From an uncultured Syntrophorhabdus sp. (lineage in GTDB: Bacteria > Desulfobacterota > BSN033 > UBA1163), in the NCBI GenBank assembly GCA_964477935.1, contig CAYZFX010000007.1:21553-85552 (forward strand): DNA of 64,000 nucleotides, given 5' to 3'. The stretch's first letter is position 1. The number at the start of each line of letters is the position of its first letter. A program made the translations under genes and the position numbers. The notes below the pieces were generated by a model that saw nothing but the letters and a program-made list of their open reading frames with translations, made no database searches and was not told the origin of the DNA. This document shows positions 1,906 to 62,193 of this stretch, piece by piece.

Positions 1906-2709
1906 ATGGTCTTCGAAACCGAAAACCTGATTGGGATCCTTTCCATGGTCCGGAGGCAGAGGCCAGTGGTCCATGCGATCACCAACTGGGTAACAGCCAA
2001 TGAAGTGGCCGATTGTCTCCATGCCATCGGTGCCAGGCCCATCCTGGCTTGGGCCCTTGAAGAGGTCGAAGAGATCACGGCCAGATCGGATGCCCTGGTC
2101 CTCAACTTAGGGACCCCTTCTCCGGAACGGATCGAGGCCATGCTCCGGTCCGGCAAACGAGCCAACCAGGAGGGTCGGCCGGTCGTCTTCGACCCCGTGG
2201 GAGCGGGGGGATCGACGTTCCGGAAGGACTCCTCAAAGAGAATTCTCGCCGAGCTCCAGATAGCTGTCATCCGGGGAAATCAGGCAGAAATCGGAGCCTT
2301 GGCCGGTAGAGAGGGTCGGTGGGGGGGTGTCGATGCGATTTCAGGTCCCGATGACCTGGAACAACTCTCTTATAACCTGGCCCTTGAAACGAAAGCGATT
2401 GTGGTGGCCACAGGGCCCTGGGATCTGATCCTCTCCTCTCATAAAAGGAGAATCGTCGAGAATGGTCACCCGATGATGGGCCAGATCACCGGTATGGGAT
2501 GTATGCTGTCAGCGGTCATCGCCGCTTTCAACGCGGTGGCCAACGACCCCATGATGGCCACGGTCAGTGCCGTGGGCTTCTTCGGGTGTGCGGGCGAACA
2601 AGCGGGACTCCATTCGATGGGCCCGGGATCTTTTAAAAATGCCTTTTTTGATGCCCTCTTCTCTTTGACACCCGATCAGATGCGACGAGGGCTAAAAGTC
2701 AGATCTTGA
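1906..2709 (+). CDS. thiM: Hydroxyethylthiazole kinase
   Basis: 267 aa ThiM-like (HAITNWVTANEVADCLHAIGARP). Immediately downstream of the TPP riboswitch. Confidence 0.85.
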   Translation: MVFETENLIGILSMVRRQRPVVHAITNWVTANEVADCLHAIGARPILAWALEEVEEITARSDALVLNLGTPSPERIEAMLRSGKRANQEGRPVVFDPVGAGGSTFRKDSSKRILAELQIAVIRGNQAEIGALAGREGRWGGVDAISGPDDLEQLSYNLALETKAIVVATGPWDLILSSHKRRIVENGHPMMGQITGMGCMLSAVIAAFNAVANDPMMATVSAVGFFGCAGEQAGLHSMGPGSFKNAFFDALFSLTPDQMRRGLKVRS

Positions 2710-3234: not shown

Positions 3235-4878
3235 ATGATCCTTAGATTCGAGAAGGTGACCTACGCCTATCCAGGCATGAAAAAGCCCGCCCTCGAGGAA
3301 TTCGACCTGGAAATCCGCCCTGGAGAGAGCGTCCTCGTTTCAGGAGCCAGCGGAAGTGGGAAATCGACCTTCTGCAGGGCCACAATCGGGCTGGTTCCCC
3401 ATTTCTACGGTGGAACCTTCACCGGGATCGTCCAAGTGGACGGACTTCAAACGATCCATCATCCGGTCCATGAACTCTTTCGACATGCCGGACTGGTCTT
3501 TCAGAATCCCGATGCCCAGCTCTTCAATCGAACCGTTGAGGCGGAGCTGGCCTATGGCCTGGAGAGCCTCGGCGTGGGGGCCTCGGAGATCGGAAAGAGG
3601 CTCGCATGGGCGAGCCAGTTGGTGGGCCTCGACCATCTGATGGATCGCCCCCCGTGGACACTCTCGGGAGGTGAGAAGCAGAGGGTGGCCCTCGGATCTA
3701 TCCTCACCCTTCGACCCCGTCTCCTCCTTCTCGACGAACCCTTCACCCATCTCGACCCCGAGGCCGCGGAAGGCCTCAGAGAGACCCTCCGGGCTATGAC
3801 ATCCGAGGGGATCACCACGATCATCGTCGAACACCGGCTCCAGGAAATCATTGAAGATGTGAACCGGATCATCGTCCTCTGTGAAGGAAGGGTCGCCCTC
3901 GATGGTCCGCCCCGTCAGGTTGTATCGGATGATCTCGTCTCCTATGGCCTCAATCTTCCCCCTTCGGTCAAGCTCTTTAAGGAATTCGGGATCAGCGCAC
4001 CCCTCTTCGATGTCGAGGAGGGATGGGAAGCATTAAGGAGGGAGAATCTCATCGGGCCCTTTACCCGTTATCTTGCCGAGCGTCTCCCTCGCCCCTCCTC
4101 AAAACCCAACCGTTCGGCTCCTCCTGTCGTCGAGATGGAAGACGTCTGGTTCAGCCCCAATGGCCTTCCCCTCCTTCAAGGGATCGATCTGACCCTTCGA
4201 AAGGGGGAGTGCGTTGCCCTCCTCGGTCGGAACGGAGCGGGTAAGACCACTCTGATCAAACATCTCAATGGCCTGATCAAACCCCAAAAGGGTGCGGTCA
4301 GAATCCTCGGGAAGGACAGCCGGAAATGCCCGGTCTCAGAACTTGCCCGCCATGTGGGGCTGGTCTGGCAAAATCCCAATGATCAGATCTTCAGGCCCAC
4401 CGTTCGAGAGGAGGTTTTAACAGGGTCAAAGATGTTTCAGATCGATGACCCGCTCTGGATCGATCAACTCTTCGAGCGATTCGGCCTCATCCCCTTGCTC
4501 GATCGGTCCCCCTTCGGGTTAAGCGAGGGTGAAAAGAAGAGGGTCTCCATGGCTGCTGCCCTGTCAACCCGACCCGCCCTCCTCGTCCTTGATGAACCCA
4601 CGGCGGGACAGGACGACCCTTCCAGACGACAACTGACCTCCCTTCTCAGGGAGCTTCAGGAAGAGGGTCAGACCCTCCTCTTCGCGACCCATGATCTTGA
4701 GTTCGCCGCGGAACATGCGGAACGCTGGATCATTCTCTCGGAAGGAAAGATCGTGGCCGATGGAGGACCCCGAGAGGTGATGGCCGATTCCCGGAGGCTA
4801 GAACGTGCAGGGCTCCGGGCCACGAGGTGGTTTCGGTTGATTCAGGCGACTCCACCCCGCAGGGAGGATCACCTTTGA
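3235..4878 (+). CDS. ECF transporter ATPase with duplicated ABC domains (EcfA-EcfA' fusion)
   Basis: Two Walker A motifs (GASGSGKST, GRNGAGKTT) and two LSGGEK/LSEGEK signatures. The ORF track starts at 3184; ATG 3235 (MILRFEKV) follows the thiW stop directly. Confidence 0.85.
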   Translation: MILRFEKVTYAYPGMKKPALEEFDLEIRPGESVLVSGASGSGKSTFCRATIGLVPHFYGGTFTGIVQVDGLQTIHHPVHELFRHAGLVFQNPDAQLFNRTVEAELAYGLESLGVGASEIGKRLAWASQLVGLDHLMDRPPWTLSGGEKQRVALGSILTLRPRLLLLDEPFTHLDPEAAEGLRETLRAMTSEGITTIIVEHRLQEIIEDVNRIIVLCEGRVALDGPPRQVVSDDLVSYGLNLPPSVKLFKEFGISAPLFDVEEGWEALRRENLIGPFTRYLAERLPRPSSKPNRSAPPVVEMEDVWFSPNGLPLLQGIDLTLRKGECVALLGRNGAGKTTLIKHLNGLIKPQKGAVRILGKDSRKCPVSELARHVGLVWQNPNDQIFRPTVREEVLTGSKMFQIDDPLWIDQLFERFGLIPLLDRSPFGLSEGEKKRVSMAAALSTRPALLVLDEPTAGQDDPSRRQLTSLLRELQEEGQTLLFATHDLEFAAEHAERWIILSEGKIVADGGPREVMADSRRLERAGLRATRWFRLIQATPPRREDHL

Positions 4879-5561
4879 AACGCCCCCCTCTCGATCCGCG
4901 GACGCATCTCGTCCTTGCCCTGGTCCTGATGGCCATGATGGTGGCCTTCAACCACTGGCTCTTCTTGCTCGGAGGGCTGGGCCTGTTGGTGGTCCTCGTC
5001 CTCTCCCTCCGTCTGTTCCGTTCCTGGAGAAATTTCCTGAAACATCTGGGGATCGCTCTTCTCACGTTCTTCTTCATCGCCTGGGTCGCCTTCGATCTGG
5101 AGACAGGGATCGTCTCCGGCCTTCGACTCCTCACCATTGGAACAGTCTCCTTTCTCTTTTTTCAGACGACCCCCCCGGAGATCATTGCCAACGGCCTGAT
5201 AAAGTTAGGTTGCCCGTATGCGGTCGCCTTCGTGCTCAACGCAAGCCTCCAATTCGTTCCGATCCTCGCCCGTCGAGCCCGAACTATTCGAGATGCCCAG
5301 CGATCTCGAGGTATCCCTGTCGAAGGTGGAGTTCGAAGTCTCTTCCACCTCCCTGCTCTTGCAGGCCCCCTCCTCATCCAATCCTTCAAGTTCGCCGACG
5401 AACTGGCAGAGGCGATGGAGGCCCGGGGGTTCGGTCTTCAAGGTCGCACGTTCCGCTATGCGCTTAAAATGAGATGGCTCGATTGGGTATTGATCACCTT
5501 TAGCCTGTTGGTGCTGGGCCTCGTTTTCCTGATAAGATTTCGGATGCTCCCTGCCTTCTGA
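4827..5561 (+). CDS. ECF transporter transmembrane T component (EcfT/CbiQ family)
   Basis: LDPRTHLVLALVL N-terminal motif and multi-TM profile. A probable TTG start at 4875 overlaps the ecfA TGA stop (cTTTGAaa), suggesting translational coupling. Confidence 0.8.
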   Translation: MVSVDSGDSTPQGGSPLKRPPLDPRTHLVLALVLMAMMVAFNHWLFLLGGLGLLVVLVLSLRLFRSWRNFLKHLGIALLTFFFIAWVAFDLETGIVSGLRLLTIGTVSFLFFQTTPPEIIANGLIKLGCPYAVAFVLNASLQFVPILARRARTIRDAQRSRGIPVEGGVRSLFHLPALAGPLLIQSFKFADELAEAMEARGFGLQGRTFRYALKMRWLDWVLITFSLLVLGLVFLIRFRMLPAF

Positions 5562-5563
5562 AC

Positions 5564-5593
5564 TTGACATAACCCTCTCCTCCAGTCTATATT
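5564..5593 (+). promoter_or_regulatory. Sigma70-like promoter for carB (TTGACA, 18 nt, TATATT)
   Basis: Good -35 and -10, about 55 nt upstream of the carB ATG. Confidence 0.5.
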
Positions 5594-5648
5594 CATCTCC
5601 ACTCATTGAGTTCCCAGAATCCCCATCCCCACACCTTTAAAGGAGACC

Positions 5649-8600
5649 TTGCCCATGCCAAGGCGAAACGACATCAGGAAGGTGATGATCATCGGATCGG
5701 GCCCTATCGTCATCGGACAGGCCTGTGAATTTGACTACTCCGGAACTCAGGCCTGTAAAGCCCTGCGCGAATTGGGTTACGAGATCGTCCTGGTCAATTC
5801 CAACCCGGCCACCATCATGACCGACCCAGGGATGGCAGATGCCACCTATATCGAACCCCTCAATCTCCAGCGGATGAAGGAGATCATCGAGAAGGAGAGG
5901 CCTGATGCGTTGCTTCCCAATCTCGGTGGCCAGACTGGACTGAACCTGGCGTCAGAATTAAAACGGGAAGGCATCCTCGATCAATACGGTGTCAAGGTGA
6001 TTGGAGTTGACATCGAAGCAATCAAACGGGGGGAAGACCGCCTCGCCTTCAAAGAGACGATGAAGCAGCTCGGCATTGAAATGCCGAGGAGTCAGATCGC
6101 CTTCTCCGTGGAAGAGGCAGAGGCAATCGCTGCCGAGCTCGGCTATCCGGTCGTGATCCGACCTGCCTACACCCTCGGAGGAACAGGCGGAGGGCTGGTC
6201 TATAACGTGGAGGAGCTCCGGGTCGTGGCCAGCCGGGGAATTTCAGCAAGCCTGGTCGGACAGGTATTGGTGGAAGAGTCAGTTCTCGGCTGGGAAGAAC
6301 TGGAGCTCGAAGTGGTCCGGGATTCCAAAAACCAGTTGATCACGGTCTGCTTCATCGAGAATGTGGATGCGATGGGGGTTCACACAGGAGACTCCTTCTG
6401 CACGGCCCCTATGCTCACCATCTCCCCTGAATTGCAGAAGCGACTTCAGAAATATGCCTATGACATCGTGGAGGCCATTCAGGTCATCGGTGGCACCAAT
6501 ATCCAGTTTGCCCACAACCCTGCCACCGGACGCCTCGTCGTCATCGAGATCAATCCCCGGACGTCCCGTTCCTCGGCCCTGGCTTCAAAAGCCACAGGTT
6601 TCCCCATTGCCCTCGTCTCTGCCAAACTGGCAGCGGGCCTGACGCTGGATGAGATCCCCTACTGGAGGGAGGGGACGCTCGAGAAATATACCCCCTCGGG
6701 CGATTATGTGGTCGTGAAGTTTGCCCGTTGGGCTTTTGAAAAGTTCAAGAATGCCCAAGACAAGTTAGGCACTCAGATGCGCGCGGTGGGCGAGGTGATG
6801 AGCATTGGAAAGACCTATAAAGAAGCCTTTCAGAAGGCAATCCGGTCCCTCGAGATCGGCCGCTACGGGCTCGGCTTCGCCAAAGACTTTCATCAGAAGA
6901 GCCTTGAGGAACTGATGGAACTTCTGACCGAGCCCTCGAGCGAGCGCCAGTTCATCATGTATGAGGCCCTCCGTAAGGGGGCAACGGTCGAAGACCTCTC
7001 CAAAAAGACCTACATCAAGCCCTGGTTTATCGAGCAGATGAAAGAGTTGGTGGAGTTGGAAGAAGAGATCCTCAAATATCAGGGCCAGACCTTGCCCGAT
7101 GAACTCCTGATCCGGGCGAAGAGGGATGGTTTTTCCGACCGCTACCTCTCCCAGCTCCTCGGGATCCCCGAGAAGAAGATTCGGGAGAGGCGGATCGCCC
7201 TTGGGGTCGTCCAGGGCTGGCAGGCGGTGCCGGTTAGCGGTGTGGAAAACGCTGCTTACTACTACTCCACTTACAACGGGCCCGATCAGGTGGCCGTCAG
7301 CACCCGTCCAAAGGTGATGGTCCTTGGGGGAGGCCCGAATCGCATCGGACAGGGGATCGAATTCGATTATTGCTGCGTCCACGCTGCCTTCTCTCTGCGA
7401 GACGAAGGGTTTGAAACGATCATGGTCAACTGCAACCCCGAGACGGTCTCCACCGATTATGACACCTCTGACAAGCTCTATTTCGAACCCCTCACGGTCG
7501 AGGATGTCCTGGGCATTTATGAGAAAGAGAAACCCCTCGGCGTCATCGTTCAATTCGGGGGGCAGACCCCGCTCAACATCGCCAACGAACTTGCCCAGGC
7601 AGGGGTGAAGATCCTCGGCACCTCGCCCAAGGCAATTGACCTCGCCGAGGATCGAGATCGTTTCCGGAAGATGATGGCGAAATTGAAGATCCCGATGCCC
7701 GAATCGGGGATGGCGAGCAACCTAAAGGAGGCCCTCAAGGTGGCCGAGAAGATTGGCTATCCCCTGATGGTGAGACCCTCCTATGTCCTCGGGGGCAGAG
7801 GGATGGAGGTGATCCACGACGAGGAGATGCTCAAAGAGTATGTGGAGGCTGCGGTGGGGGTGACGCCGCAGCGACCCATCCTGATCGACAAGTTCCTGGA
7901 GAACGCCATTGAGAGCGAAGCAGATGCCCTCTCGGATGGGGCTGATGCCTTTGTTCCAGCGGTCATGGAGCATATTGAACTGGCGGGGATCCACTCGGGC
8001 GATTCCGCCTGTGTGATCCCTCCCATCAGCATCCCCCCCAGACATCTCGATACCATCTACGAATATACGAAAAGGATCGCCATCGAGCTAAAGGTCGTCG
8101 GTTTGATGAACATCCAGTATGCTATCGCCAAGGATCGGGTCTATGTCCTCGAGGCCAATCCCCGTGCCTCCCGCACGGTCCCCATCGTCTCAAAGGTCTG
8201 TAACCTCCCGATGGCCCGGCTGGCCACCCAGATCCTGATGGGTAAAAGATTGAGTGCCTTCAACCTCAAGCCGAAATTCATCCGACATTTCGGGGTCAAG
8301 GAGTCGGTCTTCCCCTTCAACATGTTTCCCGAGGTCGATCCCGTTTTAGGACCGGAGATGCGCTCCACTGGAGAGGTCCTGGGCCTGGCGAACACCTTCG
8401 GTCTCGCCTTCTATAAGGCCCAAGAGGCCGCTCAACAATTTCTTCCCTCGGAGGGGACGGTCCTCATCACGGTCTCCGAGAGGGATCGACCGGCGGTCCT
8501 CGAAGTCGCCCAGGAAATGGTCAGGCTGGGCTTTAAGATTAAGGCAACCCATGGGACCCACCGGTTTTTAGCTGACCACGGGATCGAGTCTGAGAAGATC

Positions 8601-25570: not shown

Positions 25571-25774
25571 ATGAGGCGATCCAGTTTTGAAGAGCTCGAG
25601 GCCACCTCCCTCTACTGCCCTCAGTGCAGGAAAGCCGTTCCCGTAAGGAAGAAATTGCTTCTCGTCCTGCCAGAAGGGGATGAGTTTGAATATCTCTGTG
25701 CCTACTGTTCCTCTTCGGTTGGAACGAAAATCGACAAGAACGCACCCCCCATCCAGCTGATCTTTAAGCCTTAA
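25571..25774 (+). CDS. Small zinc-ribbon protein with two CxxC motifs (67 aa)
   Basis: CPQC ... CAYC arrangement. A leaderless-type promoter lies directly upstream. Divergent from copA. Confidence 0.45.
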   Translation: MRRSSFEELEATSLYCPQCRKAVPVRKKLLLVLPEGDEFEYLCAYCSSSVGTKIDKNAPPIQLIFKP

Positions 25775-25798
25775 ACCTCTTGGGTTTAAATTAAGGCT

Positions 25799-25817
25799 GG
25801 ATAACTTTAAGTTATCC
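25799..25817. promoter_or_regulatory. Perfect 9-1-9 palindrome GGATAACTT-T-AAGTTATCC (candidate operator or terminator hairpin)
   Basis: Seen in sequence. It lies 18 bp upstream of the -35 of the 25835 promoter and just after the zinc-ribbon ORF. Confidence 0.35.
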
Positions 25818-25834
25818 GGCCATAACAAAAAATC

Positions 25835-26095: not shown

Positions 26096-27943
26096 ATGGC
26101 TGAAAAAAAAGGTTTCCCGATGCCCTTAGAGGTTGAATTGCCAAAGGAGCTGGAAGGTTGGGAGGAGATGTATCCCCCTTACTACTTATTCAGCAAGGAA
26201 AGGAAGGAATGGGAGGAAAGCCATTTCTGGTTTCATGACAAGATTCATGCCCCTGAAGCGATGTACCCACTTGATCTTATTTTTCATGAGGCCTGGCAGA
26301 TTTCATTATCTCAGTATACCACACGAGTTTTTTGCATTCCGCCTGCTCAGGGCATCGCCCAGAGGATGGTCGGTTGCTATATGTATATCACGCCTGTGGC
26401 CCCCCCACCCCAGGAGATCATCGGTGAGAAAGCCGCTCTCTTTCAAAAAAGGGTCTTTTATGTATTTGATCATTACGATGCCCTCTGGGGGTTGTGGCTG
26501 AAGAAATTCAGGGCCCTCGGAGAGGAGATGGCCAGCATTAAGGTCCCTTCAGAGTTTCCGAAGTTCGAAGACGATGACACTGTCTTTCCTGAACCCCGGG
26601 GATATTACACCTCCTATGATCTGATCGAGGGCTGGGATCGGCTGGTCAACCTGATGATCAAGGGCTGGCAATTCCACTTTCAGTATCTAAATCTCGCCTA
26701 TCTCGCCTATCTCTTGTTCGCAGACACCTGTCGGAAACTTTTCCCAGGGATCTCCGAGAGCACCATCGGCAAACTCGTCGCCGGTGCCTATGTCCAGATG
26801 TTCCGTCCTGAAGAAGAGCTGGGTAGGTTGGCCCGGATTGCGGCGGCCATTCCCGAGCTGGCAAAGGTGCTCAAAAGTGACCTCCCGGTTTCCGAGAAGA
26901 TATCCACCCTCAGACAATCCGCAGAAGGAAGGGATTGGCTGGTCGAGTATGAAAAGTCCAAGGATCCCTGGTTCTATGTCTCCTGCGGGAGCGGATGGTT
27001 CCATTATGAGGGGAGCTGGATCTCCAAGCCTGAGATTCCCTTTGGCTATTTGAAAAGTTATATTGAGCGAATCGAGAGGGGCGAGAGGATCGAAAGGGAT
27101 CTTCCAGGAATTGACAAAGAGAGGGCGGAGCTTGCCGATCAGTATCGCAAACTGATCAAAACCGATGAGGATAGAAAATCTTTTGACGACACGTATAAAG
27201 CGGTCCGCACCATCTATAAATATGCAGAGGATCACCTCTTCTGGGTGGAGCACTGGCTCCATACGATATGGTTCGAAAAGGTGAGGGAGTTCGGAAATGT
27301 CCTTGTCAAGTATGGGCTTCTGAAGGAACCGGATGACATCTATCTGTTTAACCGTTTCGAAGTGCCTTACCTCATGGAAGACCTGGCCACCACCTGGGCC
27401 CTTGGAGTGGGGGTGCCCTCCGGAGGGGCTTACTGGCAGGCTAAGGCTGAGAAGAGGAAGAAGATTCTGGAGGCAGCCAAGAAATGGACGCCGATCCCGG
27501 CTCTTGGGAAACCTCCGGAGGAGGTCGCCGAACCCTTCACCATCATGCTCTGGGGAATCACCACTGAAAAAGTTCAGGAGTGGCTCAAAGGAGTGGCGGT
27601 TGTCCCGTCAGAGGTGACCGAGCTGAAAGGATTTGCCTCGTCGGCAGGTGTGGTGGAGGGAACGGTGAGAGTGGTGAAACGTCTGGAAGAGATCACACAG
27701 GTCGAACAGGGCGAGATCCTCGTCTGCCCGACGACAAACCCTGCCTGGGCTCCGGTCTTCACCAAGATCAAGGCATCGGTAACTGACATCGGTGGTATCA
27801 CCAGCCATGCCGCAATCGTCTGCAGAGAGTACGGTGTTCCATCGGTGACGGGAACCGGGATTGCCACCTCTATACTTAAGACCGGCGATACGGTAAGGGT
27901 GGATGGAAATACCGGGATCGTGAAGATCTTGAAACGGGGCTGA
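26096..27943 (+). CDS. PEP-utilizing-enzyme phosphohistidine (mobile-domain) subunit with a large N-terminal substrate domain; phenylphosphate synthase PpsA-like
   Basis: 615 aa. The C-terminal swivel domain GGITSHAAIVCREYGVPSVTG...VDGNTGIV carries the conserved His. The N-terminal roughly 500 aa are unassigned. Size and layout match the roughly 70 kDa PpsA subunit. Confidence 0.7.
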   Translation: MAEKKGFPMPLEVELPKELEGWEEMYPPYYLFSKERKEWEESHFWFHDKIHAPEAMYPLDLIFHEAWQISLSQYTTRVFCIPPAQGIAQRMVGCYMYITPVAPPPQEIIGEKAALFQKRVFYVFDHYDALWGLWLKKFRALGEEMASIKVPSEFPKFEDDDTVFPEPRGYYTSYDLIEGWDRLVNLMIKGWQFHFQYLNLAYLAYLLFADTCRKLFPGISESTIGKLVAGAYVQMFRPEEELGRLARIAAAIPELAKVLKSDLPVSEKISTLRQSAEGRDWLVEYEKSKDPWFYVSCGSGWFHYEGSWISKPEIPFGYLKSYIERIERGERIERDLPGIDKERAELADQYRKLIKTDEDRKSFDDTYKAVRTIYKYAEDHLFWVEHWLHTIWFEKVREFGNVLVKYGLLKEPDDIYLFNRFEVPYLMEDLATTWALGVGVPSGGAYWQAKAEKRKKILEAAKKWTPIPALGKPPEEVAEPFTIMLWGITTEKVQEWLKGVAVVPSEVTELKGFASSAGVVEGTVRVVKRLEEITQVEQGEILVCPTTNPAWAPVFTKIKASVTDIGGITSHAAIVCREYGVPSVTGTGIATSILKTGDTVRVDGNTGIVKILKRG

Positions 27944-28028
27944 GAGACCTTACGTTTAAATTTAGGGGGTTGGAGGTTAAACGCTCCTCTCGGGGATTGA
28001 GCGGTCACCTCCAACCTCAGATTTTCAA

Positions 28029-29123
28029 TTGAGTATTTTTCATCAATGGGAGTTTGCTATGGCCTACACCTTATGGTTTGACAAAGCAGGAAAAGAAGCC
28101 CTCGCCCTGGTCGGTGGAAAAAATGCCAGCCTGGGCGAGTTGATCAAGGCCGACATTCCAGTCCCCCCTGGATTTTCAGTGACCACAGAGGCGTATCTTG
28201 AATTTATCACCGGTAGCCTTAAGGAAGAGATCAGGCGGGTCCTCTCCCGTATCGACCTTCAGGATGTGGCCTCACTGGAAGGGGCCAGCCAGACCATCCG
28301 GGAACTCATCTCTCAAACCCCTTTCCCTCAAAAGATGGCCGACGAGATCGCCTCTAACTACGAAGCCCTCTCAAACGTCTTCGGCACGCCCGAGCTTCCT
28401 GTGGCTGTCCGGTCGAGTGCGACCGCCGAGGATCTTCCGGGAGCAAGCTTTGCTGGTCAGCAGGACACCTTCCTCTGGGTGCGCGGAATCGAAGAGGTTC
28501 TGAAAAAGATCAAACAATGTATGTCGAGCCTCTTCACACCGAGGGCCATCTCCTACAGGGTGAAGATGGGGTTTCCTCACGAGAAGGTATTGATCAGTGT
28601 GGGGATCCAGAAGATGGTCGACGCCCGGGCGGCGGGTGTCATGTTTACCCTCAACCCCCTCAATGGCGATCCCTCGAAGGTCGTCATCGAAGGAAACTGG
28701 GGGCTGGGAGAGACGGTCGTCGCGGGAGTCTGCAACCCTGACAAATTTGTTGTGGATAAGGTGACTAAGGACCTCGTAAAGGAGATCTCATTAAAGGAGA
28801 CGGAGTGCGTCTTCGACCCTCGAAGCGGTGAGGTGATCCATAGAGACATCGCCCCTGACCTGAGAGAAGTCCCATGCCTCGATGACGAGGAGGTCCTCGA
28901 ACTGGCACGATACGCAATCAAGATAGAGGATTATTATGGATGCCCTCAGGATATCGAATGGGCCATCGACAGGCAGAATCCCTTCCCCTTCAATATCTAT
29001 ATGGTCCAGAGTCGTCCGGAGACGATCTGGAGTCAGAAGAAGAAAGAGCCCGTCCTCGGAAAGAAGAGTGCCTACGAACTCTTGATGGAAAAGGCCTTGT
29101 CCACGATTAAGATCAACATCTAA
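28029..29123 (+). CDS. PEP synthase/PPDK N-terminal ATP-binding domain protein; phenylphosphate synthase PpsB-like
   Basis: PPDK_N family signature LALVGGKNASLGELIKADIPVPPGFSVTTEAY. Likely start is MAYTLWF at 28059 with a GGGAG SD. About 40 kDa, like PpsB. Confidence 0.75.
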   Translation: MSIFHQWEFAMAYTLWFDKAGKEALALVGGKNASLGELIKADIPVPPGFSVTTEAYLEFITGSLKEEIRRVLSRIDLQDVASLEGASQTIRELISQTPFPQKMADEIASNYEALSNVFGTPELPVAVRSSATAEDLPGASFAGQQDTFLWVRGIEEVLKKIKQCMSSLFTPRAISYRVKMGFPHEKVLISVGIQKMVDARAAGVMFTLNPLNGDPSKVVIEGNWGLGETVVAGVCNPDKFVVDKVTKDLVKEISLKETECVFDPRSGEVIHRDIAPDLREVPCLDDEEVLELARYAIKIEDYYGCPQDIEWAIDRQNPFPFNIYMVQSRPETIWSQKKKEPVLGKKSAYELLMEKALSTIKINI

Positions 29124-29244
29124 CATCCCCCCTTCGAATCGGAGAGTGGGAGAAGGCCTGAGTCACCCATTCAGGGTCTCTCCCCCTCCTCCGGATCTTC
29201 TACCCGCTGCGATCCCTTGAACTCTTTTCCCGATCTGTTTTAAT

Positions 29245-30288
29245 GTGTTCCCAGTACTCAAGGAGGAAGGCCTTTTCATGGAAACCGGAAAGCTTCCTAT
29301 TGACCTTCTTGAAAAGGCGTTAAAAAGATATTCTCTTCTTGATCCTACCGTCGTTCTTGGCCCAAAAATCGGGGAGGATGCCGCTGTAATCGATCCCGGA
29401 AAAGAATCAAAGCATTATTGGGTGGTCACTTCGGATCCCATCACGTTCACGACAGAAGAGATCGGATATTACGGTGTCGTCGTCAATCTAAACGACCTCG
29501 CCACCCGGGGAGCCACTCCGAAATATTTTCTGGCCACCCTCCTCTTTCCGGAACAGGGCTCAACCCCGAAGACCGTTGAAAAGACGTTCCGTCAGATCCA
29601 TGAGGCCTGCCGACGCTTTGGCCTCTCTTTTATCGGAGGCCATACCGAGATCACCCCTGGCCTTGATAGGGTTATTCTCTCCGGTCACATGATCGGAACC
29701 GTCAAAAAAGGAGGTCTGGTCCAAACCAGCGGCGCAAGAGCAGGAGATCTCTTGCTCATGGCCAAAGGCGTCTGCATTGAGGGAACGTCGATCATTGCCA
29801 GAGAAAGGGAAAAAGCCTTGCTGAGCAGAGGATTTTCCCCTTCCTTCCTGAACAGGGCGAAAGATTTCATCTTCGACCCTGGAATCGATGTCCTTCAGGT
29901 AGCCCGAATCGCCTGCCGAACCGCCAACATCCATTCGATGCACGATCCTACTGAGGGAGGTCTCATCAACGGGGTCGTTGAGATGGCCATGGCCTCGGGA
30001 AGAGAGATCGAGGTCAATCTTGGAGAGGTTTTCGTATACGACGAAGCGAAACTCCTCTGTGCGGAGTTCGGGCTCGATCCTCTGAGGACGATCGCCTCGG
30101 GATCGCTCCTCTTGACGATCTCCCCGGCAGACCTCCCTGCCCTCCAAAAAGCCTTTCGAAGGGCTTCGATCCCCCTCCGTGTCATCGGAAGAGTGGGGCG
30201 AGCCCCAGGCCGGGCCTTCGCATGGGAGGGAAAAAGGAGGCGAATATTACACCCCGTATCCAGGGATGAAATTTTAAAAATATTCTGA
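29245..30288 (+). CDS. AIR-synthase-related protein (PurM superfamily; ThiL/HypE-like ATP-dependent kinase fold)
   Basis: IGEDAAVID and VVVNLNDLATRGATP motifs shared with ThiL/PurM. Likely start is METGKL at 29278 with an AAGGAGGA SD. Lacks the SelD N-terminal Sec/Cys-Lys motif. Confidence 0.7.
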   Translation: MFPVLKEEGLFMETGKLPIDLLEKALKRYSLLDPTVVLGPKIGEDAAVIDPGKESKHYWVVTSDPITFTTEEIGYYGVVVNLNDLATRGATPKYFLATLLFPEQGSTPKTVEKTFRQIHEACRRFGLSFIGGHTEITPGLDRVILSGHMIGTVKKGGLVQTSGARAGDLLLMAKGVCIEGTSIIAREREKALLSRGFSPSFLNRAKDFIFDPGIDVLQVARIACRTANIHSMHDPTEGGLINGVVEMAMASGREIEVNLGEVFVYDEAKLLCAEFGLDPLRTIASGSLLLTISPADLPALQKAFRRASIPLRVIGRVGRAPGRAFAWEGKRRRILHPVSRDEILKIF

Positions 30289-30303
30289 TGAAAGGACGAA
30301 AGA

Positions 30304-31503
30304 ATGGCAAAGCCCTTTCTCGGTCTTTCAAAAAATGTGAGGAGCCTCGGCTGGGTCAGCCTCTTCAACGACATCGCCAGCGAGATGATCTATCCCCTTC
30401 TACCCCTCTTCTTAAACACAGTGCTTGGAGCAGGGGTCGTCTTTATCGGTTTGATCGAGGGAATTGCGGAGAGCGTCTCCAGTTTTCTCAAACTCTTTTC
30501 CGGCTGGGTCTCGGACCGTTTCCGAAAGAGGAAAGGGCTCATCTTCTTTGGATACGCCCTCGCCTCCCTCACCCGTCCCTTCATCGGACTGGCGACCTCT
30601 GCTTTCCAGGTCCTCTTTCTCCGTTTCTTCGATCGGATCGGCAAAGGCGTCAGGTCCTCACCCAGGGATGCCCTCCTCTCCCAATCCTGCGGAGAAGAGG
30701 AACGGGGGAAGGCCTTCGGTTTCCAGAGGGCCATGGACCATGCCGGAGCCATGATTGGCCCCCTCGTTGCCTCCTTTTTGATGGCGGTCTTGACGAAGGA
30801 TCTCCGGACCCTCTTCCTCCTCGCCTTCATCCCTTCCCTCTTCTGCCTCTATATTCTCTGGCGAGGCGTCACTGACCTCCCCCCCGTACAACCTTCCCAC
30901 ACGGATCAATCGAAATCTCTTTCGGCTCCGAAACTCAACTGGAAGCAATGGGACAGGCGATTCAAATACTTTCTGGTCATCATCACCCTTTTTACGCTCG
31001 GCAATTCGAGTGACGCGTTTCTCCTCCTCCGTGCTCAGGACCTGGGGCTGAATGTCGTCACCATCCCGATTCTCTGGTTTGTTTTTCACCTTTCGAAAAC
31101 CATCTCCTCCATTCCCGGGGGAACTCTATCCGACCGGATCGGCCGAAAAAGAGTGATGGTCCTCGCCTGGAGCCTCTACGGACTGGTTTATCTCGGGTTT
31201 GCCTTCGCCTCAACCCCCTACCATCTCTGGATGCTCTTCATCGCCTACGGACTCTTCTATGGGCTCTCTGAGGGGACGGAAAAGGCATGGGTGGCCGACC
31301 TGGTGGAGGAATCAAAACGGGGAACGGCTTATGGCGCCTATCACTTCTGTATCGGCATCGCCGCTCTTCCGGCAAGCCTCCTGATGGGCCTGATCTGGAA
31401 AGCGATCGGCGTCCAGTGGGCCTTTACTTTCGGCGCTGCCATGGCCCTCATTGCCGCCTTCTTAACAATCGCTCTGATGGGAGACGACCGGAAAGCGACA
31501 TAG
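30304..31503 (+). CDS. MFS transporter
   Basis: 399 aa with about 12 predicted TM helices and an MFS-like loop motif. Confidence 0.8.
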   Translation: MAKPFLGLSKNVRSLGWVSLFNDIASEMIYPLLPLFLNTVLGAGVVFIGLIEGIAESVSSFLKLFSGWVSDRFRKRKGLIFFGYALASLTRPFIGLATSAFQVLFLRFFDRIGKGVRSSPRDALLSQSCGEEERGKAFGFQRAMDHAGAMIGPLVASFLMAVLTKDLRTLFLLAFIPSLFCLYILWRGVTDLPPVQPSHTDQSKSLSAPKLNWKQWDRRFKYFLVIITLFTLGNSSDAFLLLRAQDLGLNVVTIPILWFVFHLSKTISSIPGGTLSDRIGRKRVMVLAWSLYGLVYLGFAFASTPYHLWMLFIAYGLFYGLSEGTEKAWVADLVEESKRGTAYGAYHFCIGIAALPASLLMGLIWKAIGVQWAFTFGAAMALIAAFLTIALMGDDRKAT

Positions 31504-31533
31504 CAAATTCGAATCTGTTTTTTTGACAAAACC

Positions 31534-32724
31534 ATGGAAACCGTTCCAGCAGGTGAAATCGAATCTCGAATCAAAAACTTCCAGAAGGTCCTTACGGAAA
31601 GAGGGCTTGATGGGGCCTTCATCCTTCAGAATGTTGACCGCTATTACTTCTCTGGAACGATTCAATCCTCCGTGCTCTTCATTCCACGGGTCGATGAACC
31701 CATCCTTATGGTTCAAAAGGGCCTGGAGAGGGCACGCAGGGAATCTTCTTTAAAGAACATCCTCCCGGTGGTGGGAAGAGGCCAGATCAAGAAAGTTCTG
31801 AAAGAGAGAGGTTTCCTGAGATTTAAAACGATTGGCCTCGAGATGGACATCCTTCCTGTGAACCTCTATCTCCGATACCAGCAGACCTTTCCGGAATACG
31901 AATGGGCCGATATCTCCGAAACGATTTTAAGGCTTCGTATGAGGAAGACTCCCTATGAAGTCGAACAGATTCGAAGGGCCGCCGCAATCCTGCATAAAGG
32001 ATACATGGAAATCAGAGAGATCATCCGTGAAGGAATGACCGAGCTTGAAGTGGATGGCTATCTGGCCTTAATCGCCCGAAGGGAAGGCCATATGGGTGTC
32101 ATGAGGATGCGGGGATGGAACCAGGAGATGACCATTGCCCATGTCCTTTCGGGAGAGAGTGGAGCGGCCATCTCCTTCCTCGATAGCCCCCATGGGGGAA
32201 AGGGAAATACGCCGGCCATGGCACAGGGAGCAAGTTTCCGGAGAATTGGAAGAGACGAACCCATCGGGATCGATTATGGGGTCGGGGTCAACGGCTATAT
32301 CGCCGATCAGTTCCGCACCCTGGTCATTGGCAATCTGCCGGATGATCTGATCAGGGCTCATGATCTATCCCTTGAGATCCATTCCCTCTTCGTCGAAGAA
32401 GCAAAACCCGGCATCGCCTGCTCCGATCTGTATCGCCTACTCATGGAGCGGGTGAGACAGAACCACTACTTTTTTAAATACTTCAATGGCTACGGGGAAG
32501 GAAAGGTGAGGTTTATCGGTCATGGATTGGGCCTGGAGATCGATGAATATCCAATCCTCTCTCCCCGTTTCGACCAGAAACTCGAGCCCGGTATGGTCAT
32601 CGCCCTCGAGCCGATGTTCGTCTTTCCCGACAGAGGGATTGTCGGGTTGGAGGATGACTATCTGGTCACCTCCAGCGGGGTTCAACGCCTCACCCTCACC
32701 GACCAGACCATCCTCACCATTTAA
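31534..32724 (+). CDS. M24-family metallopeptidase (Xaa-Pro aminopeptidase / creatinase fold)
   Basis: 396 aa. Creatinase-like N-terminus and a pita-bread C-terminus with metal-ligand residues (HGLGLEIDE, DYGVGVNGYIAD). Confidence 0.8.
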   Translation: METVPAGEIESRIKNFQKVLTERGLDGAFILQNVDRYYFSGTIQSSVLFIPRVDEPILMVQKGLERARRESSLKNILPVVGRGQIKKVLKERGFLRFKTIGLEMDILPVNLYLRYQQTFPEYEWADISETILRLRMRKTPYEVEQIRRAAAILHKGYMEIREIIREGMTELEVDGYLALIARREGHMGVMRMRGWNQEMTIAHVLSGESGAAISFLDSPHGGKGNTPAMAQGASFRRIGRDEPIGIDYGVGVNGYIADQFRTLVIGNLPDDLIRAHDLSLEIHSLFVEEAKPGIACSDLYRLLMERVRQNHYFFKYFNGYGEGKVRFIGHGLGLEIDEYPILSPRFDQKLEPGMVIALEPMFVFPDRGIVGLEDDYLVTSSGVQRLTLTDQTILTI

Positions 32725-33294: not shown

Positions 33295-33831
33295 ATGGAG
33301 GATTTTAAAAAAATTCTGGTCACCGGGACCCCCGGCGTGGGTAAGACCACGCTCATCAAAGAGTTGTCAGCAGGGTTGAAAGAACTTCATCCCGTAGGAT
33401 TTTATACCGAGGAGATTCGGGAGGGGGCTGAGAGAAAGGGGTTCGAACTTATCGGCCTTAATGGAAGAAAGGGGTGTCTCGCCCATAAAGACTTCAAAAG
33501 CCCTTACCGGGTTGGGAAATATGGGGTCGATCTCAAAGGCTTTGAAGATTTCCTCGATTCCATCCCCTGGACCGATCCTTCGGCCCGACTGATCATCATC
33601 GACGAGATCGGAAAGATGGAGTGCTTTTCCTGGAAATTCCAGAAGATTTTGAACGGGATATTCAACTCTGAAAAGGGGCTTATTGCAACGATTGCAAAGA
33701 AAGGGGGTGGCCTGATCGCCCAGATAAAAGCGAGAGAGGACGTCGGGATTTTCGATGTCACGTTGAAGAATCGAAACTCCCTTCTTATGGAAATCCTGAA
33801 AGAAATCGGGGAAACGAGAGAGATACGATGA
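33295..33831 (+). CDS. THEP1-type nucleoside-triphosphatase (archaeal-type P-loop NTPase)
   Basis: 178 aa with Walker A GTPGVGKTT and Walker B IIIDEIG. Size and motifs fit the THEP1/MJ1559 family. Confidence 0.6.
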   Translation: MEDFKKILVTGTPGVGKTTLIKELSAGLKELHPVGFYTEEIREGAERKGFELIGLNGRKGCLAHKDFKSPYRVGKYGVDLKGFEDFLDSIPWTDPSARLIIIDEIGKMECFSWKFQKILNGIFNSEKGLIATIAKKGGGLIAQIKAREDVGIFDVTLKNRNSLLMEILKEIGETREIR

Positions 33832-34370
33832 GAGGCATCCTTCTGGTCCCGATCGGAGAGGTGAGTGGAGTGGTCCTCATTAAGCTGAAGACTGAATTGG
33901 CGAAGAGGTGTCTTCGACCCGTCGCCATCGGCAATGAGATGCCCGTACCCCGCCATGCTTATGATAACAAGAGAGATCAGTATCTGGCTAACTTTATCCT
34001 GGAGGCCGTTAGAAAAGAGGAAGAACCTCTAAACTACGAAAGGGCCCTTGCCATTGTGGATCATGACCTCTACGTCCCGGAACTCAATTTCGTCTTCGGT
34101 CTGGCCGGGCAGAGGGTTGCCGTCATCTCTCTTACTCGACTGAGGCAGGAATTCTATGGGCTTCCAAAAGACCCGGACCTCTTTGACCGACGGGTTCTCA
34201 CGGAGGCCATCCATGAGCTGGGCCATACTTATGGATTAGGACACTGTAAGAATCCCGGGTGTGTGATGTTCTTCTCCAATAGCCTGATCGACACCGACCG
34301 AAAAGGCCCTGACTTCTGCATGAAGTGCAAAATTCGCCTCTTTAATGGCCTGCCCGAACCAGGAGCTTAA
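33828..34370 (+). CDS. Archaemetzincin (AmzA-family zinc metalloprotease)
   Basis: Diagnostic HELGHTYGLGHCKNPGCVM motif (HExxHxxGxxH followed by CxxxxC). Its start overlaps the THEP1 stop by 4 nt. Confidence 0.8.
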   Translation: MRGILLVPIGEVSGVVLIKLKTELAKRCLRPVAIGNEMPVPRHAYDNKRDQYLANFILEAVRKEEEPLNYERALAIVDHDLYVPELNFVFGLAGQRVAVISLTRLRQEFYGLPKDPDLFDRRVLTEAIHELGHTYGLGHCKNPGCVMFFSNSLIDTDRKGPDFCMKCKIRLFNGLPEPGA

Positions 34371-59520: not shown

Positions 59521-62193
59521 TCAAGGATTGACCCGTTCGATTCGGACCGTGGAGTATTTTAAATCCGGGATCTTCGATTCTGGATCGAGCACGGTATTGG
59601 TCAGGCGATTGACCGGGGCCTCCGCAAAATGGAATTTGGCAAAGGCCACTCCCTTGGCCACCCTCTCCGTGATCTTCACCCTCGAGGTGAATTCCCCTCT
59701 CCGGCTCACCACTCTGACCTGATCCTCTTCCCTGATCCCGAGCCTTTCTGCATCTTGAGGATGGATCTCCACTAAACTCTCCGGGCACATCTCGTTAAGG
59801 AGTCTCACCTTCCGGGTCATACTTCCCGCGTGATAATGGTAATAATCCCTTCCCGTACTCAGAATGAATGGAAATTCCTGATCCGGGACTTCGGGGGGAG
59901 GACTATAGTCCACGGGCACGAATAATCCCTTCCCCCTTGCGATCTTGCCCCTATGGAGGATCGGCGTTCCCGGATGGCTCACATCCGGGCAGGGCCACTG
60001 AATCCCCTTGGACTCCAGGCGGGCATAGGTGATCCCTGCATACTGGGGGGTCACCTGGCGAATCTCTTCGAAGATGTCCTCAGGCCCTCGATAAGACATC
60101 GGATATCCGAACCGGGTGGAGATCTCCGAAATGATCTCCCAATCGGCCTTAGCCCCTTCCGGACCTTCGAGCGCCTTTCTCACCCGCTGAACCCTCCTCT
60201 CGGTGTTGACGAATGTCCCGTCCTTCTCGAGGAAGCTCAGGGTGGGAAAGACGACATGGGCCTGCTGGGCCGACTCCGTGAGAAAGAGGTCCTGAACCAC
60301 GAGGAGGTCCAATTTGGCATAAGCCTTCTGGAGATGGGATAGATCGGGGTCGGTCACCATGGGATTCTCCCCCATGATGTAAATCGCTTTAACCTCTCCC
60401 CTGTAGGCGGCCTCTCCAATCTCAACGACCGTAAGACCAGGTTTCTCTGAGAGGGATGTGTTCCAGAAATATTCAAACTTCTCCCTGTTCTCCCTGATCG
60501 CCACGGCCTGATACCCAGGATAGACATTCGGCAGACAACCCATGTCGCAGGCCCCCTGCACATTATTCTGCCCTCTCAAGGGGTTGACCCCGCTTCCGGG
60601 TTTTCCGAGCTGACCGCAGAGGAGGGCCAGATTGGAGATCGCCTTCACTCCGTCCGTACCCTTTGAGTGCTGGGTGATTCCCATGCAGTAGAGGATGGCC
60701 GCATTCTTTGCCGTGGCATACATCCGCGCTGCCTTGATGAGCTGGTCTTTCGGAATTCCGGTCAGCTCTTCCACATATTCAGGCGTGTATTGTGCAACCT
60801 TCTCCTTAAAGGCCTCGAACCCCTCTGTATGAGCTTCGATGAATCCCTTATTATAGAGATTCTCTTTGAGGATGATGTGTGCCAAACCGTTTAACCAGGC
60901 AATATCATCCCCGGGTTTGGGCTGGAGGAAGAGGTCGGCCTCCTCGGTGAGATCGATCCGTCTCGGATCGACAACGATGATCTTGGCCCCGTGGAATCGA
61001 GAGCGGTTCCTAAGGACCATTCCGATGACTGGATGGGTTTCGGTCGTATTGCTTCCGGTCACGAGAAAGAGATCTGCCTCTTTGAAATCGGCGATGGAGT
61101 TGGTCATCGCGCCGGAGCCTAAGGTCGTGGCCAGACCGACCACGGTGCTGGAGTGTCAGAGACGGGCACAGTGGTCCACATTGTTCGTCCCGATGGCAGC
61201 CCTGAGAAACTTCTGGAAGAGGTAGTTTTCTTCACAGGTGACCCGGGCAGAGGCGAGTCCGGCGATGCTGTTCGGGCCATAGGTCGCCTTGATCTCTCTC
61301 AGCCTCGTGGCTACGAACGTCAGGGCTTCCTCCCAGCTGGCTTCTCTCAACCGGCCATTTTCACGGATGAGTGGGGTTTTGAGCCTTTCAGGGCTGTGGA
61401 CGAATTCGAAGCCGAACCTCCCTTTGACACAGAGAACCCCGTGATTCGTGCCAAGCCCCTCACGGGTGGTTACCTTAATCACCCTGTTTTGGACCACGTT
61501 CACCTCGAGAGAACAGCCCACGCCGCAGTATCCACAGATCGTCGTCACCCTCTCCGCCTGCCATTTCCTTCCCTTGATTGGACTGACGTTCTCTGTCAGT
61601 GCGCCCACTGGGCAGGCGGCCAGACACTCCCCGCAGGAGATGCACCTTTCTGGCCGCACGGGCTCCACGCGGGCGTCGAAGCCAGTGCCGTGGAGATCGA
61701 GGACCTCCCGGCCGACGACCTCCCGGCAGGTTCGGATGCACCGGCTGCAGAGGATACAGCGGTTCGGGTGGTATCGGATGGCTGGAGTGGAATAGGTTCG
61801 GACTTCTTTCGCCGGCGCCTCCACCCGGTAGACCGTCTCGGTGATCCCATATTCGTAAACATAATCCTGGAGGTCACATTCCCCTCCCTTATCACAGACC
61901 GGACAATCAAGGGGGTGATTCACCAGCAGGAACTGAAGGACCTCTTTTCGGATCTCGCGGACCTTGTCGGTCTCTGTCTCCACGACCATCCCGTCCACAG
62001 CCACCGTGTTGCAGGCGGTCACAGGGTTTTTAAGTCCCTCGATCTCGACCACACACATCCTGCACATGCCAGTGGGTAGGAGACTCTCCATGTAGCAAAG
62101 CGTCGGGATACGGATACCATCCTTCTTGGCCATTTGAAGAATGGTCAGGCCCTCTTCTCCTTCGATGAGTCTGCCATTGATCGTGATCTTCAT
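59521..62193 (-). CDS. fdhA: Selenocysteine-containing molybdopterin formate dehydrogenase alpha subunit, NuoG-like N-terminus (FdsA/FdhA type); one gene spanning two track ORFs via an in-frame UGA at 61156-61158
   Basis: N-terminal 2Fe-2S, His-ligated HPLDCPVCDKGGEC and two ferredoxin-type 4Fe-4S motifs. Then the MopB domain, where NVDHCARL-[TGA][20 protein letters not shown] aligns with E. coli FdhF NVDCCARV-U-HGPSVAGL. Downstream MopB motifs include GVNPLRGQNNVQGACDMG. Confidence 0.8.
61120..61146 (-). promoter_or_regulatory. Candidate bacterial SECIS hairpin (7-bp stem CGUGGUC/GGCCACG, apical loop GGUCU) beginning 12 nt 3' of the UGA codon
   Basis: Seen in sequence in minus-strand sense. 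The position and G/U-containing apical loop are consistent with SelB-binding SECIS elements. Confidence 0.45.

Follow-up and report, generated by a model that had tools for sequence, protein, structure and literature searches.

A putative phenol dikinase gene pair next to a conserved PurM-superfamily module in an uncultured Syntrophorhabdus lineage

Do five closely spaced bacterial genes make up one pathway, or are they neighbors of different origin? The question is raised by g1 to g5, five plus-strand open reading frames (ORFs) at 26096-32724 of a 64-kb stretch of DNA from an uncultured Syntrophorhabdus sp. (the whole stretch is called the window here). g1 and g2 resemble the genes of phenylphosphate synthase and are referred to as ppsAB, g3 encodes a protein of the PurM superfamily, g4 a permease of the major facilitator superfamily (MFS), and g5 an M24-type metallopeptidase; a small ORF, s67, lies upstream. 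Our comparisons indicated that the region is probably a mosaic made up of two or more units, a ppsAB phenol dikinase cassette and a separate module composed of s67, g3, and g4. In such a mosaic, ppsAB, joined in some relatives by the gene for a 370-amino-acid (aa) membrane protein, would be a variable accessory insert between s67 and g3. The genes of the locus are the following.

25571..25774, plus strand: s67, zinc-ribbon-like ORF of 67 aa containing two CxxC pairs; conserved upstream companion of g3
26096..27943, plus strand: g1, PpsA-like, 615 aa; PF00391 at residues 537-607
28059..29123, plus strand: g2, PpsB-like ATP-grasp protein with PPDK_N as sole domain; ORF open from 28029
29278..30288, plus strand: g3, PurM superfamily, domains AIRS and AIRS_C; ORF open from 29245
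30304..31503, plus strand: g4, MFS permease (MFS_1, 175 bits)
31534..32724, plus strand: g5, M24B prolidase/aminopeptidase-P-like protein with Creatinase_N and Peptidase_M24

All five ORFs, g1 to g5, and their Pfam domains were confirmed as listed in a preliminary description of the sequence, in which s67 had been overlooked, and the start codons of g2 and g3 were corrected. The g2 start is most likely the ATG at 28059 (MAYTLWFD..., 354 aa), which is common to all relatives, and g3 probably starts at the ATG at 29278, behind an AAGGAGG ribosome-binding site, giving a product of 336 aa like those of its relatives. With these starts, the gaps from g1 to g5 measure 115, 154, 15, and 30 nucleotides (nt), and the 154-nt gap between g2 and g3 contains a conserved promoter-like element.

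Gene neighborhoods of ppsAB and of the PurM-like gene

Relatives of g1 were collected in a PpsA scan with one genome per species, in which 303 loci were found and the best 80 kept. All of them are metagenome-assembled genomes (MAGs), mostly of Thermodesulfobacteriota, and the counts on ppsA neighborhoods given below rest on these best 80 of 303 loci. Loci with a PpsA 84-95% identical are called the window's clade, and those at 66-73% identity are the outgroup. Contexts of g3 homologs were obtained from look-ups and a metagenome scan. Close relatives of the locus all came from Thermodesulfobacteriota MAGs, with labels such as Syntrophorhabdus or Syntrophaceae; an archaeal source of the DNA, at which the NTPase_1 and Peptidase_M54 genes downstream (see below) had hinted, was discarded for that reason.

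As revealed by these comparisons, ppsAB and the PurM-like (AIRS) gene each occur without the other. In 24 loci, s67 was found 60-300 nt upstream of a g3 homolog with no ppsAB, often with an MFS gene next (L087, L088, and L090 included). Such loci share the backbone of the window, with Rrf2 and either AhpC or further stress genes upstream and S41, M23, and ftsX/ftsE genes downstream. In the window's clade, s67 lies upstream of ppsA and the ppsA-ppsB pair sits between s67 and g3; ppsAB was located exactly between s67 and the AIRS gene in about 28 loci over several AIRS lineages. Conversely, ppsAB linked to phenylphosphate carboxylase (ppc) genes occurs without the PurM-like gene, and 97.7% identity is shared by the PpsA proteins of L019, which has an s67/AIRS context like the window, and of L022, which has a ppc context. 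In neighbor-joining trees, g3 homologs with and without ppsAB were interleaved, and so were AIRS-linked and ppc-linked PpsA proteins.

These data run counter to the preliminary description, which had put the PurM-like protein in the place of the PpsC subunit and had taken uptake, phosphorylation, and hydrolysis for one conserved pathway. Nor did the neighborhood comparison bear out a conserved linkage of the genes, since g3 keeps its own upstream element (see below), and the M24 gene was found beside the locus only in the nearest relatives (L003-L006, L008, L093, and L097). Judging from sequence comparison, s67, g3, and g4 appear to constitute a conserved, uncharacterized module of their own that is part of the core chromosome in this group of Thermodesulfobacteriota and distinct from ppsAB.

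Four features were found in the gaps between these genes.

25791..25825, strand not assigned: near-perfect palindrome, core GGATAACTTtAAGTTATCC, just past the s67 stop codon
25837..25865, plus strand: ppsA promoter-like element, TTGACA-N17-GATAAT
27968..28017, plus strand: stem-loop in the ppsA-ppsB gap, GGTTGGAGGT ... ACCTCCAACC, as read from the sequence
29217..29244, plus strand: g3 promoter-like sequence, TTGAAC-N16-TTTAAT, at a distance of 34 nt from the g3 start codon

The element upstream of ppsA matches the consensus at 11 of 12 positions. Its general form, TTGACA-N16-18-[GT]ATAAT, was present upstream of ppsA in 16 of 17 loci with s67 upstream, versus 1 of 6 loci of the same clade without s67 and none of 54 outgroup loci. 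For g3, the pattern TTGNNN-N8-14-[AT][CT]TGNT[TA][TA]AAT, defined post hoc from the same sequences in which it was counted, was detected within 250 nt upstream in 19 of 20 loci with s67 directly upstream (and no ppsAB) and in 17 of 21 ppsAB-linked loci, compared with a frequency of 0.7% in random windows. Thus, g3 keeps an upstream signal of its own whichever gene precedes it, which fits two transcription units, and g3-g5 probably possess their own promoter. The palindrome, which has 17-nt arms that are 88% complementary and 1 nt apart, is weakly conserved in relatives. It lies between the s67 stop codon and the ppsA element and may serve as a terminator or operator.

Several observations weigh against reading the region as a phenol dikinase cassette plus a separate module. 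No UbiD or ppc homolog was found anywhere within the 64-kb window, and PpsA in the window's clade is mostly AIRS-linked (11 loci) and not ppc-linked (4 loci). g1 is 40.6% identical to the PpsA encoded in our reference cluster, the annotated ppsABC-ppcBDAG-UbiD-UbiX genes of Azoarcus KH32C, a degree of similarity also known from family members that differ in substrate. The promoter-like motifs amount to no more than matches to a consensus, and the gaps from g1 to g5, that between g2 and g3 included, yielded no terminator-like site, such that co-transcription by read-through is possible. Furthermore, a divergent ppsAB, with 64% identity to g1 and 59% to g2, is located directly upstream of window-type AIRS-MFS genes in L121 (1-5450) and L122, indicating that ppsAB arrived at or was kept in this position more than once. 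The nearest relatives of the PpsA of these two loci, at 72-73% identity, are those of L030, which is UbiD-linked, and L068, which is too short to show its context, both labeled Dehalococcoidia. The repeated placement could reflect an insertion hotspot, recombination among relatives in conserved flanks, or a functional link, and the second ppsAB lineage argues for selection or an insertion hotspot, not for accident. Around ppsAB, a search for direct repeats and mobile-element scars yielded only short, low-identity matches, none of which brackets the cassette.

A functional link could take two forms. One is a single five-gene pathway, in which the MFS permease would serve in uptake or efflux, PpsAB would phosphorylate a hydroxyl or amide compound with the aid of the PurM-like enzyme (standing in for PpsC or acting as another kinase), and the M24 enzyme would hydrolyze it, possibly in detoxification. 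Such a pathway would agree with the common strand, the short gaps free of terminator-like sites, and the same s67-AIRS position of ppsAB in all those loci and AIRS lineages, the second ppsAB lineage included. It would also agree with the distribution of the MFS gene, present in 16 of 17 ppsAB-linked loci without the gene for the 370-aa membrane protein versus 3 of 7 with it (counts uncorrected for relatedness), and with the lack of any ppc gene within 10 kb in every s67-ppsAB-AIRS locus. We nevertheless consider it unlikely. The s67-AIRS(-MFS) set is common without ppsAB, PpsA proteins up to 97.7% identical occur in ppc operons devoid of an AIRS gene, and the element upstream of g3 is the same whether s67 or ppsB precedes. 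Besides being restricted to the nearest relatives, the M24 gene encodes a protein that retains every metal ligand of prolidase and resembles an ordinary peptidase.

In the other form, the placement of ppsAB, involving at least two PpsA lineages, reflects a real coupling, and the s67/PurM-like/MFS module works together with phenol phosphorylation. This, too, seems doubtful to us. If coupling holds, the module could contribute a new dikinase accessory, or it could act in a carboxylase-independent trapping or detoxification of phenol as phenylphosphate and in the transport of that product. As a separate point, s67 and the PurM-like enzyme would make up a two-protein system new to the PurM superfamily. 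According to the mosaic reading, which we favor, ppsAB would move as a small cassette between the ppc operon and an unrelated core locus, and such movement is a warning against inferring pathways from adjacency alone.

Substrate of the ppsAB-encoded enzyme

The relatives of g1 and g2 point to phenol as the most likely substrate. Outside the window's clade, a ppcB-like UbiD gene was present in all 35 informative loci, usually together with UbiX. Among the closer relatives, PpsA orthologs 85-87% identical to g1 (L014 and L021-L023) adjoin ppc clusters. In L021 and L022, where PpsA is 85.7% identical to g1, we identified orthologs of all of the Azoarcus ppcB, ppcD, ppcA, and ppcG subunits as well as of UbiD and UbiX (61, 40, 62, 33, 37, and 60% identity, respectively), and L002 carries the Phenyl_P_gamma domain (PF09662) of the phenylphosphate carboxylase gamma subunit. 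Since PpsA is near-identical in AIRS and ppc contexts, the enzyme should be effectively the same in both, which makes phenol the best-supported substrate. The preliminary description, in which no substrate had been named, was thus too cautious, and its remark that phenylphosphate carboxylase genes are missing nearby holds throughout the window.

The window also lacks a homolog of the CBS-domain protein PpsC of Azoarcus. PpsC is stimulatory to the enzyme, and it is unlinked as well in Desulfatiglans anilini, a phenol degrader in which several ppc subunits are encoded at loci away from pps (PMC6114531); its presence is therefore no strict hallmark of a phenylphosphate synthase. The phenol-induced Pps-alpha of this bacterium is 42% identical to the Thauera aromatica enzyme (PMC6114531), and dikinase family members with different substrates, HpeHI and CreHI, share about 45% identity (PMC12167813). 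The identity between g1 and the Azoarcus PpsA speaks in itself neither for nor against phenol.

It is quite improbable, in our judgment, that g1 and g2 act on another aromatic compound, e.g., cresol, catechol, hydroquinone, hydroxyacetophenones, or aniline. Such a specificity would be in line with the different phenolics accepted by HpeHI and CreHI (PMC12167813), with the finding that the aniline enzyme of D. anilini accepts phenol too (PMC7500099), with the modest resemblance of g1 to the Azoarcus protein, and with the lack of a ppc gene near the window locus. On the other hand, orthologs 85-98% identical adjoin four-subunit phenylphosphate carboxylase operons, the gamma subunit included (L002, L021, and L022), and the alpha subunits of the D. 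anilini aniline and phenol enzymes are only 27% identical (PMC7500099), suggesting that a change of substrate usually goes along with a much greater divergence. With phenol as the substrate, the locus marks an uncultured Thermodesulfobacteriota lineage as a likely anaerobic phenol activator, which is useful for interpreting metagenomes of phenolic wastewater and subsurface sites.

A second, very distant PpsA-/PpsB-like set (24-27% and 38% identity) was noticed in L030 at 3388-7378, where the main ppsAB-UbiD cluster follows 3-6 kb downstream. This set may encode a paralogous dikinase that acts on a different aromatic compound.

Domains and predicted mechanism of the g1 and g2 proteins

The proteins encoded by g1 and g2 are predicted to form a two-component small-molecule dikinase of the PpsA/PpsB type, to which phenylphosphate synthase, HpeHI, and CreHI belong. 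In g1, the only Pfam match is the mobile domain of phosphoenolpyruvate (PEP) utilizers (PF00391), and the N-terminal part of about 500 aa belongs to no Pfam family; the protein scores 889 bits against NCBIfam NF006153 (cutoff, 578), a subfamily named only "hypothetical protein" to date. The swivel domain contains the motif GGITSHAAIVCR with the catalytic His571, which fits the consensus GGxT[S/C]HAA[IV] described for the catalytic-His swivel motif of two-component dikinases (PMC12167813), and T569 and H571 were invariant among 12 sequences. PPDK_N was detected in g2 at 381 bits, and g2 aligns with the N-terminal 340 or so residues, i.e., the ATP-grasp part, of PEP synthase and rifampin phosphotransferase (RPH). 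Furthermore, g2 is 49.4% identical to the PpsB of the Azoarcus KH32C cluster, to which the PpsA comparison given above also refers, and PpsB directly follows PpsA in 68 of the 69 related loci with enough room.

Sequence matches of g1 to PEP synthase, RPH, and enzyme I among PDB sequences are confined to the swivel domain. An AlphaFold2 model of g1, built from 12 sequences, was poor (predicted local distance difference test [pLDDT] score, 60; template modeling [TM] score, 0.39) and lends weak support to an RPH relationship only. When this low-confidence model was searched with Foldseek, six RPH entries were the sole significant PDB matches, extending over the full length with E values from 4e-11 to 6e-9. 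The model thus suggests that the N-terminal domain of g1 resembles the rifampin-binding domain of RPH. Together, the domain split, the fold match, and the gene order uphold the view of the preliminary description that g1 and g2 encode a PpsA/PpsB-type split dikinase akin to RPH.

That the two genes represent nothing but a PEP synthase (pyruvate, water dikinase) in two pieces is extremely improbable. Homologs are annotated as "pyruvate, water dikinase" by the Joint Genome Institute (JGI), and g2, aligned with the N-terminal portion of the PEP synthase model NF005057, reaches 398 bits (g1, 104 bits; cutoff, 598). However, the scores with both PEP synthase models are far under the cutoffs, g1 resembles PEP synthase in the swivel domain only and RPH in its N-terminal fold, and the third domain, the PEP-utilizers_C or PEP/pyruvate-binding TIM barrel (PF02896), is missing from both proteins even at an E value of ≤1, upon which the candidate was rejected. 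A split ppsA, which the preliminary description had itself named as an outcome that would overturn its reading, is thus not what the two genes encode.

Among known systems, phenylphosphate synthase PpsAB(C) of Thauera aromatica, Aromatoleum, and Azoarcus (Pps-alpha/beta of D. anilini, Geobacter metallireducens, and Syntrophorhabdus) is similar in its domain split into subunits of about 70 and 40 kDa, its Ser-His catalytic motif, and its gene order (ppsA and then ppsB). Close orthologs of g1 and g2 adjoin ppcABDG/UbiD/UbiX, and g1 shows about 41% identity to the betaproteobacterial enzyme, in keeping with the value reported for the D. anilini enzyme (PMC6114531). In contrast to these systems, the window has neither a CBS-domain PpsC nor a ppc gene within 64 kb, and its ppsAB, known here from sequence, is inserted between a zinc-ribbon ORF and a PurM-like gene. 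HpeHI, AcvAB, and CreHI of aerobic aromatic catabolism (PMC12167813) likewise combine a large subunit of rifampin-binding-like and swivel domains with a small ATP-grasp subunit, whereas g1 and g2 come from an anaerobic Thermodesulfobacteriota lineage, and the neighbors of their orthologs point to phenol and carboxylation instead of hydroxyphenylethanones or cresol. In RPH (PDB 5hv1 and 5fbt), all three domains are homologous to those of g1/g2, and phosphotransfer proceeds via the His swivel; RPH differs in being one polypeptide with the order ATP-grasp, substrate, and swivel domains, whereas g1 and g2 are two polypeptides, and g1 matches it by sequence in the swivel domain only.

By analogy with PpsAB and HpeHI, the ATP-grasp protein PpsB would present ATP, from which His571 on the swivel domain of PpsA would take the beta-phosphate, with AMP and Pi being released. 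The swivel domain would then pass the phosphate on to a phenolic hydroxyl group held in the RPH-like N-terminal domain. The resulting phenylphosphate would presumably be used by a phenylphosphate carboxylase whose genes lie at another locus of the genome.

The PurM-like module, g5, and the remaining window

Thermodesulfobacteriota encode g3 homologs in abundance, as proteins of the "AIR synthase family," with hundreds of them at 62-96% identity. Copies of s67 are 69-87% identical across lineages, more conserved than the PurM-like gene downstream, and were also found at 7737-7940 of L087, at 7736-7936 of L090, and in about 20 further loci. s67 together with the PurM-superfamily enzyme is thus a widespread, unnamed gene pair. 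Neither s67 nor the 370-aa membrane protein belongs to any Pfam or NCBIfam family.

g3 shares the AIRS and AIRS_C domains and conserved Asp-rich ATP/metal motifs (GEDAAVID, NDIATRG, and GGHTE) with HypE and ThiL, which gave 68 and 51 bits, respectively, in a PDB profile search. It differs from them in scoring far under the family cutoffs (93 bits against hypE TIGR02124, cutoff 251.6; 86.5 against thiL TIGR01379, cutoff 184), and it is well under the SelD cutoff; moreover, the pairing with a 67-aa zinc-ribbon ORF is absent in both families. In HypE, a C-terminal Cys carries the thiocyanate, whereas g3 ends with ...RDEILKIF and has no Cys at its C terminus. Assignment to HypE or ThiL was thus ruled out by the family cutoffs and, for HypE, also by the C terminus. 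We would tentatively take g3 for an ATP-dependent kinase or ligase with the s67 zinc-ribbon protein as its partner. Distant g3 homologs (46-51% identical; L143-L170) had no s67, Pps, or MFS gene beside them and gave no consistent functional clue. One such homolog (47%) lies in L149 (6652-8005) right after a gene for an MTH1187-family thiamine-binding protein (TIGR00106, 96.8 bits), an arrangement seen in 1 of 170 loci.

No NCBIfam family scored above its cutoff for g4, which is a frequent, nonobligatory companion of g3, following g3 homologs with and without ppsAB. The 370-aa polytopic membrane protein (MGNEKPPEKIG...NWPWAPP...), absent from the window, is encoded after ppsB in the ppc-linked loci as well as in several s67/AIRS loci, where the insert consists of ppsA-ppsB and this gene. 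It was located at 12619-13731 of L021, 13147-14259 of L022, 10016-11128 of L014, and 3336-4448 of L020, and it also occurs in L010, L013, L017, L019, L025, L100, and L123. We regard it as a candidate phenol-related transporter.

For g5, the best solved relative is the Pyrococcus furiosus prolidase 1pv9, and all five columns that we take to be its metal ligands (Asp, Asp, His, Glu, and Glu) are conserved. Against the archaeal PepQ equivalog, g5 scores 125 (cutoff, 630). The protein is predicted to be an M24B metallopeptidase of the Xaa-Pro dipeptidase/aminopeptidase-P-like type, and its gene appears to be a recent, lineage-specific neighbor of the module.

No other aromatic-catabolism genes were found in the 64-kb window, and the rest of it is ordinary core chromosome, encoding, among others, carB, beta-oxidation genes, a copper ATPase, ftsEX with M23 and S41 peptidase genes, and nuo. 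A NuoG-like/formate-dehydrogenase-like molybdopterin subunit is split between two minus-strand ORFs (59521-61143 and 61156-62193); the molybdopterin domain is divided between them, owing to a frameshift, to pseudogene formation, or to a true split of the gene. A thiamine pyrophosphate (TPP) riboswitch (68 bits) at 1741-1854 on the plus strand is followed by a gene for the hydroxyethylthiazole kinase ThiM (1906-2709, plus strand). Finally, an NTPase_1 (THEP1-like) gene at 33295-33831 overlaps a Peptidase_M54 (archaemetzincin-like) gene at 33828-34370 by 4 nt, both on the plus strand of this bacterial genome, and the pair is kept in L003.

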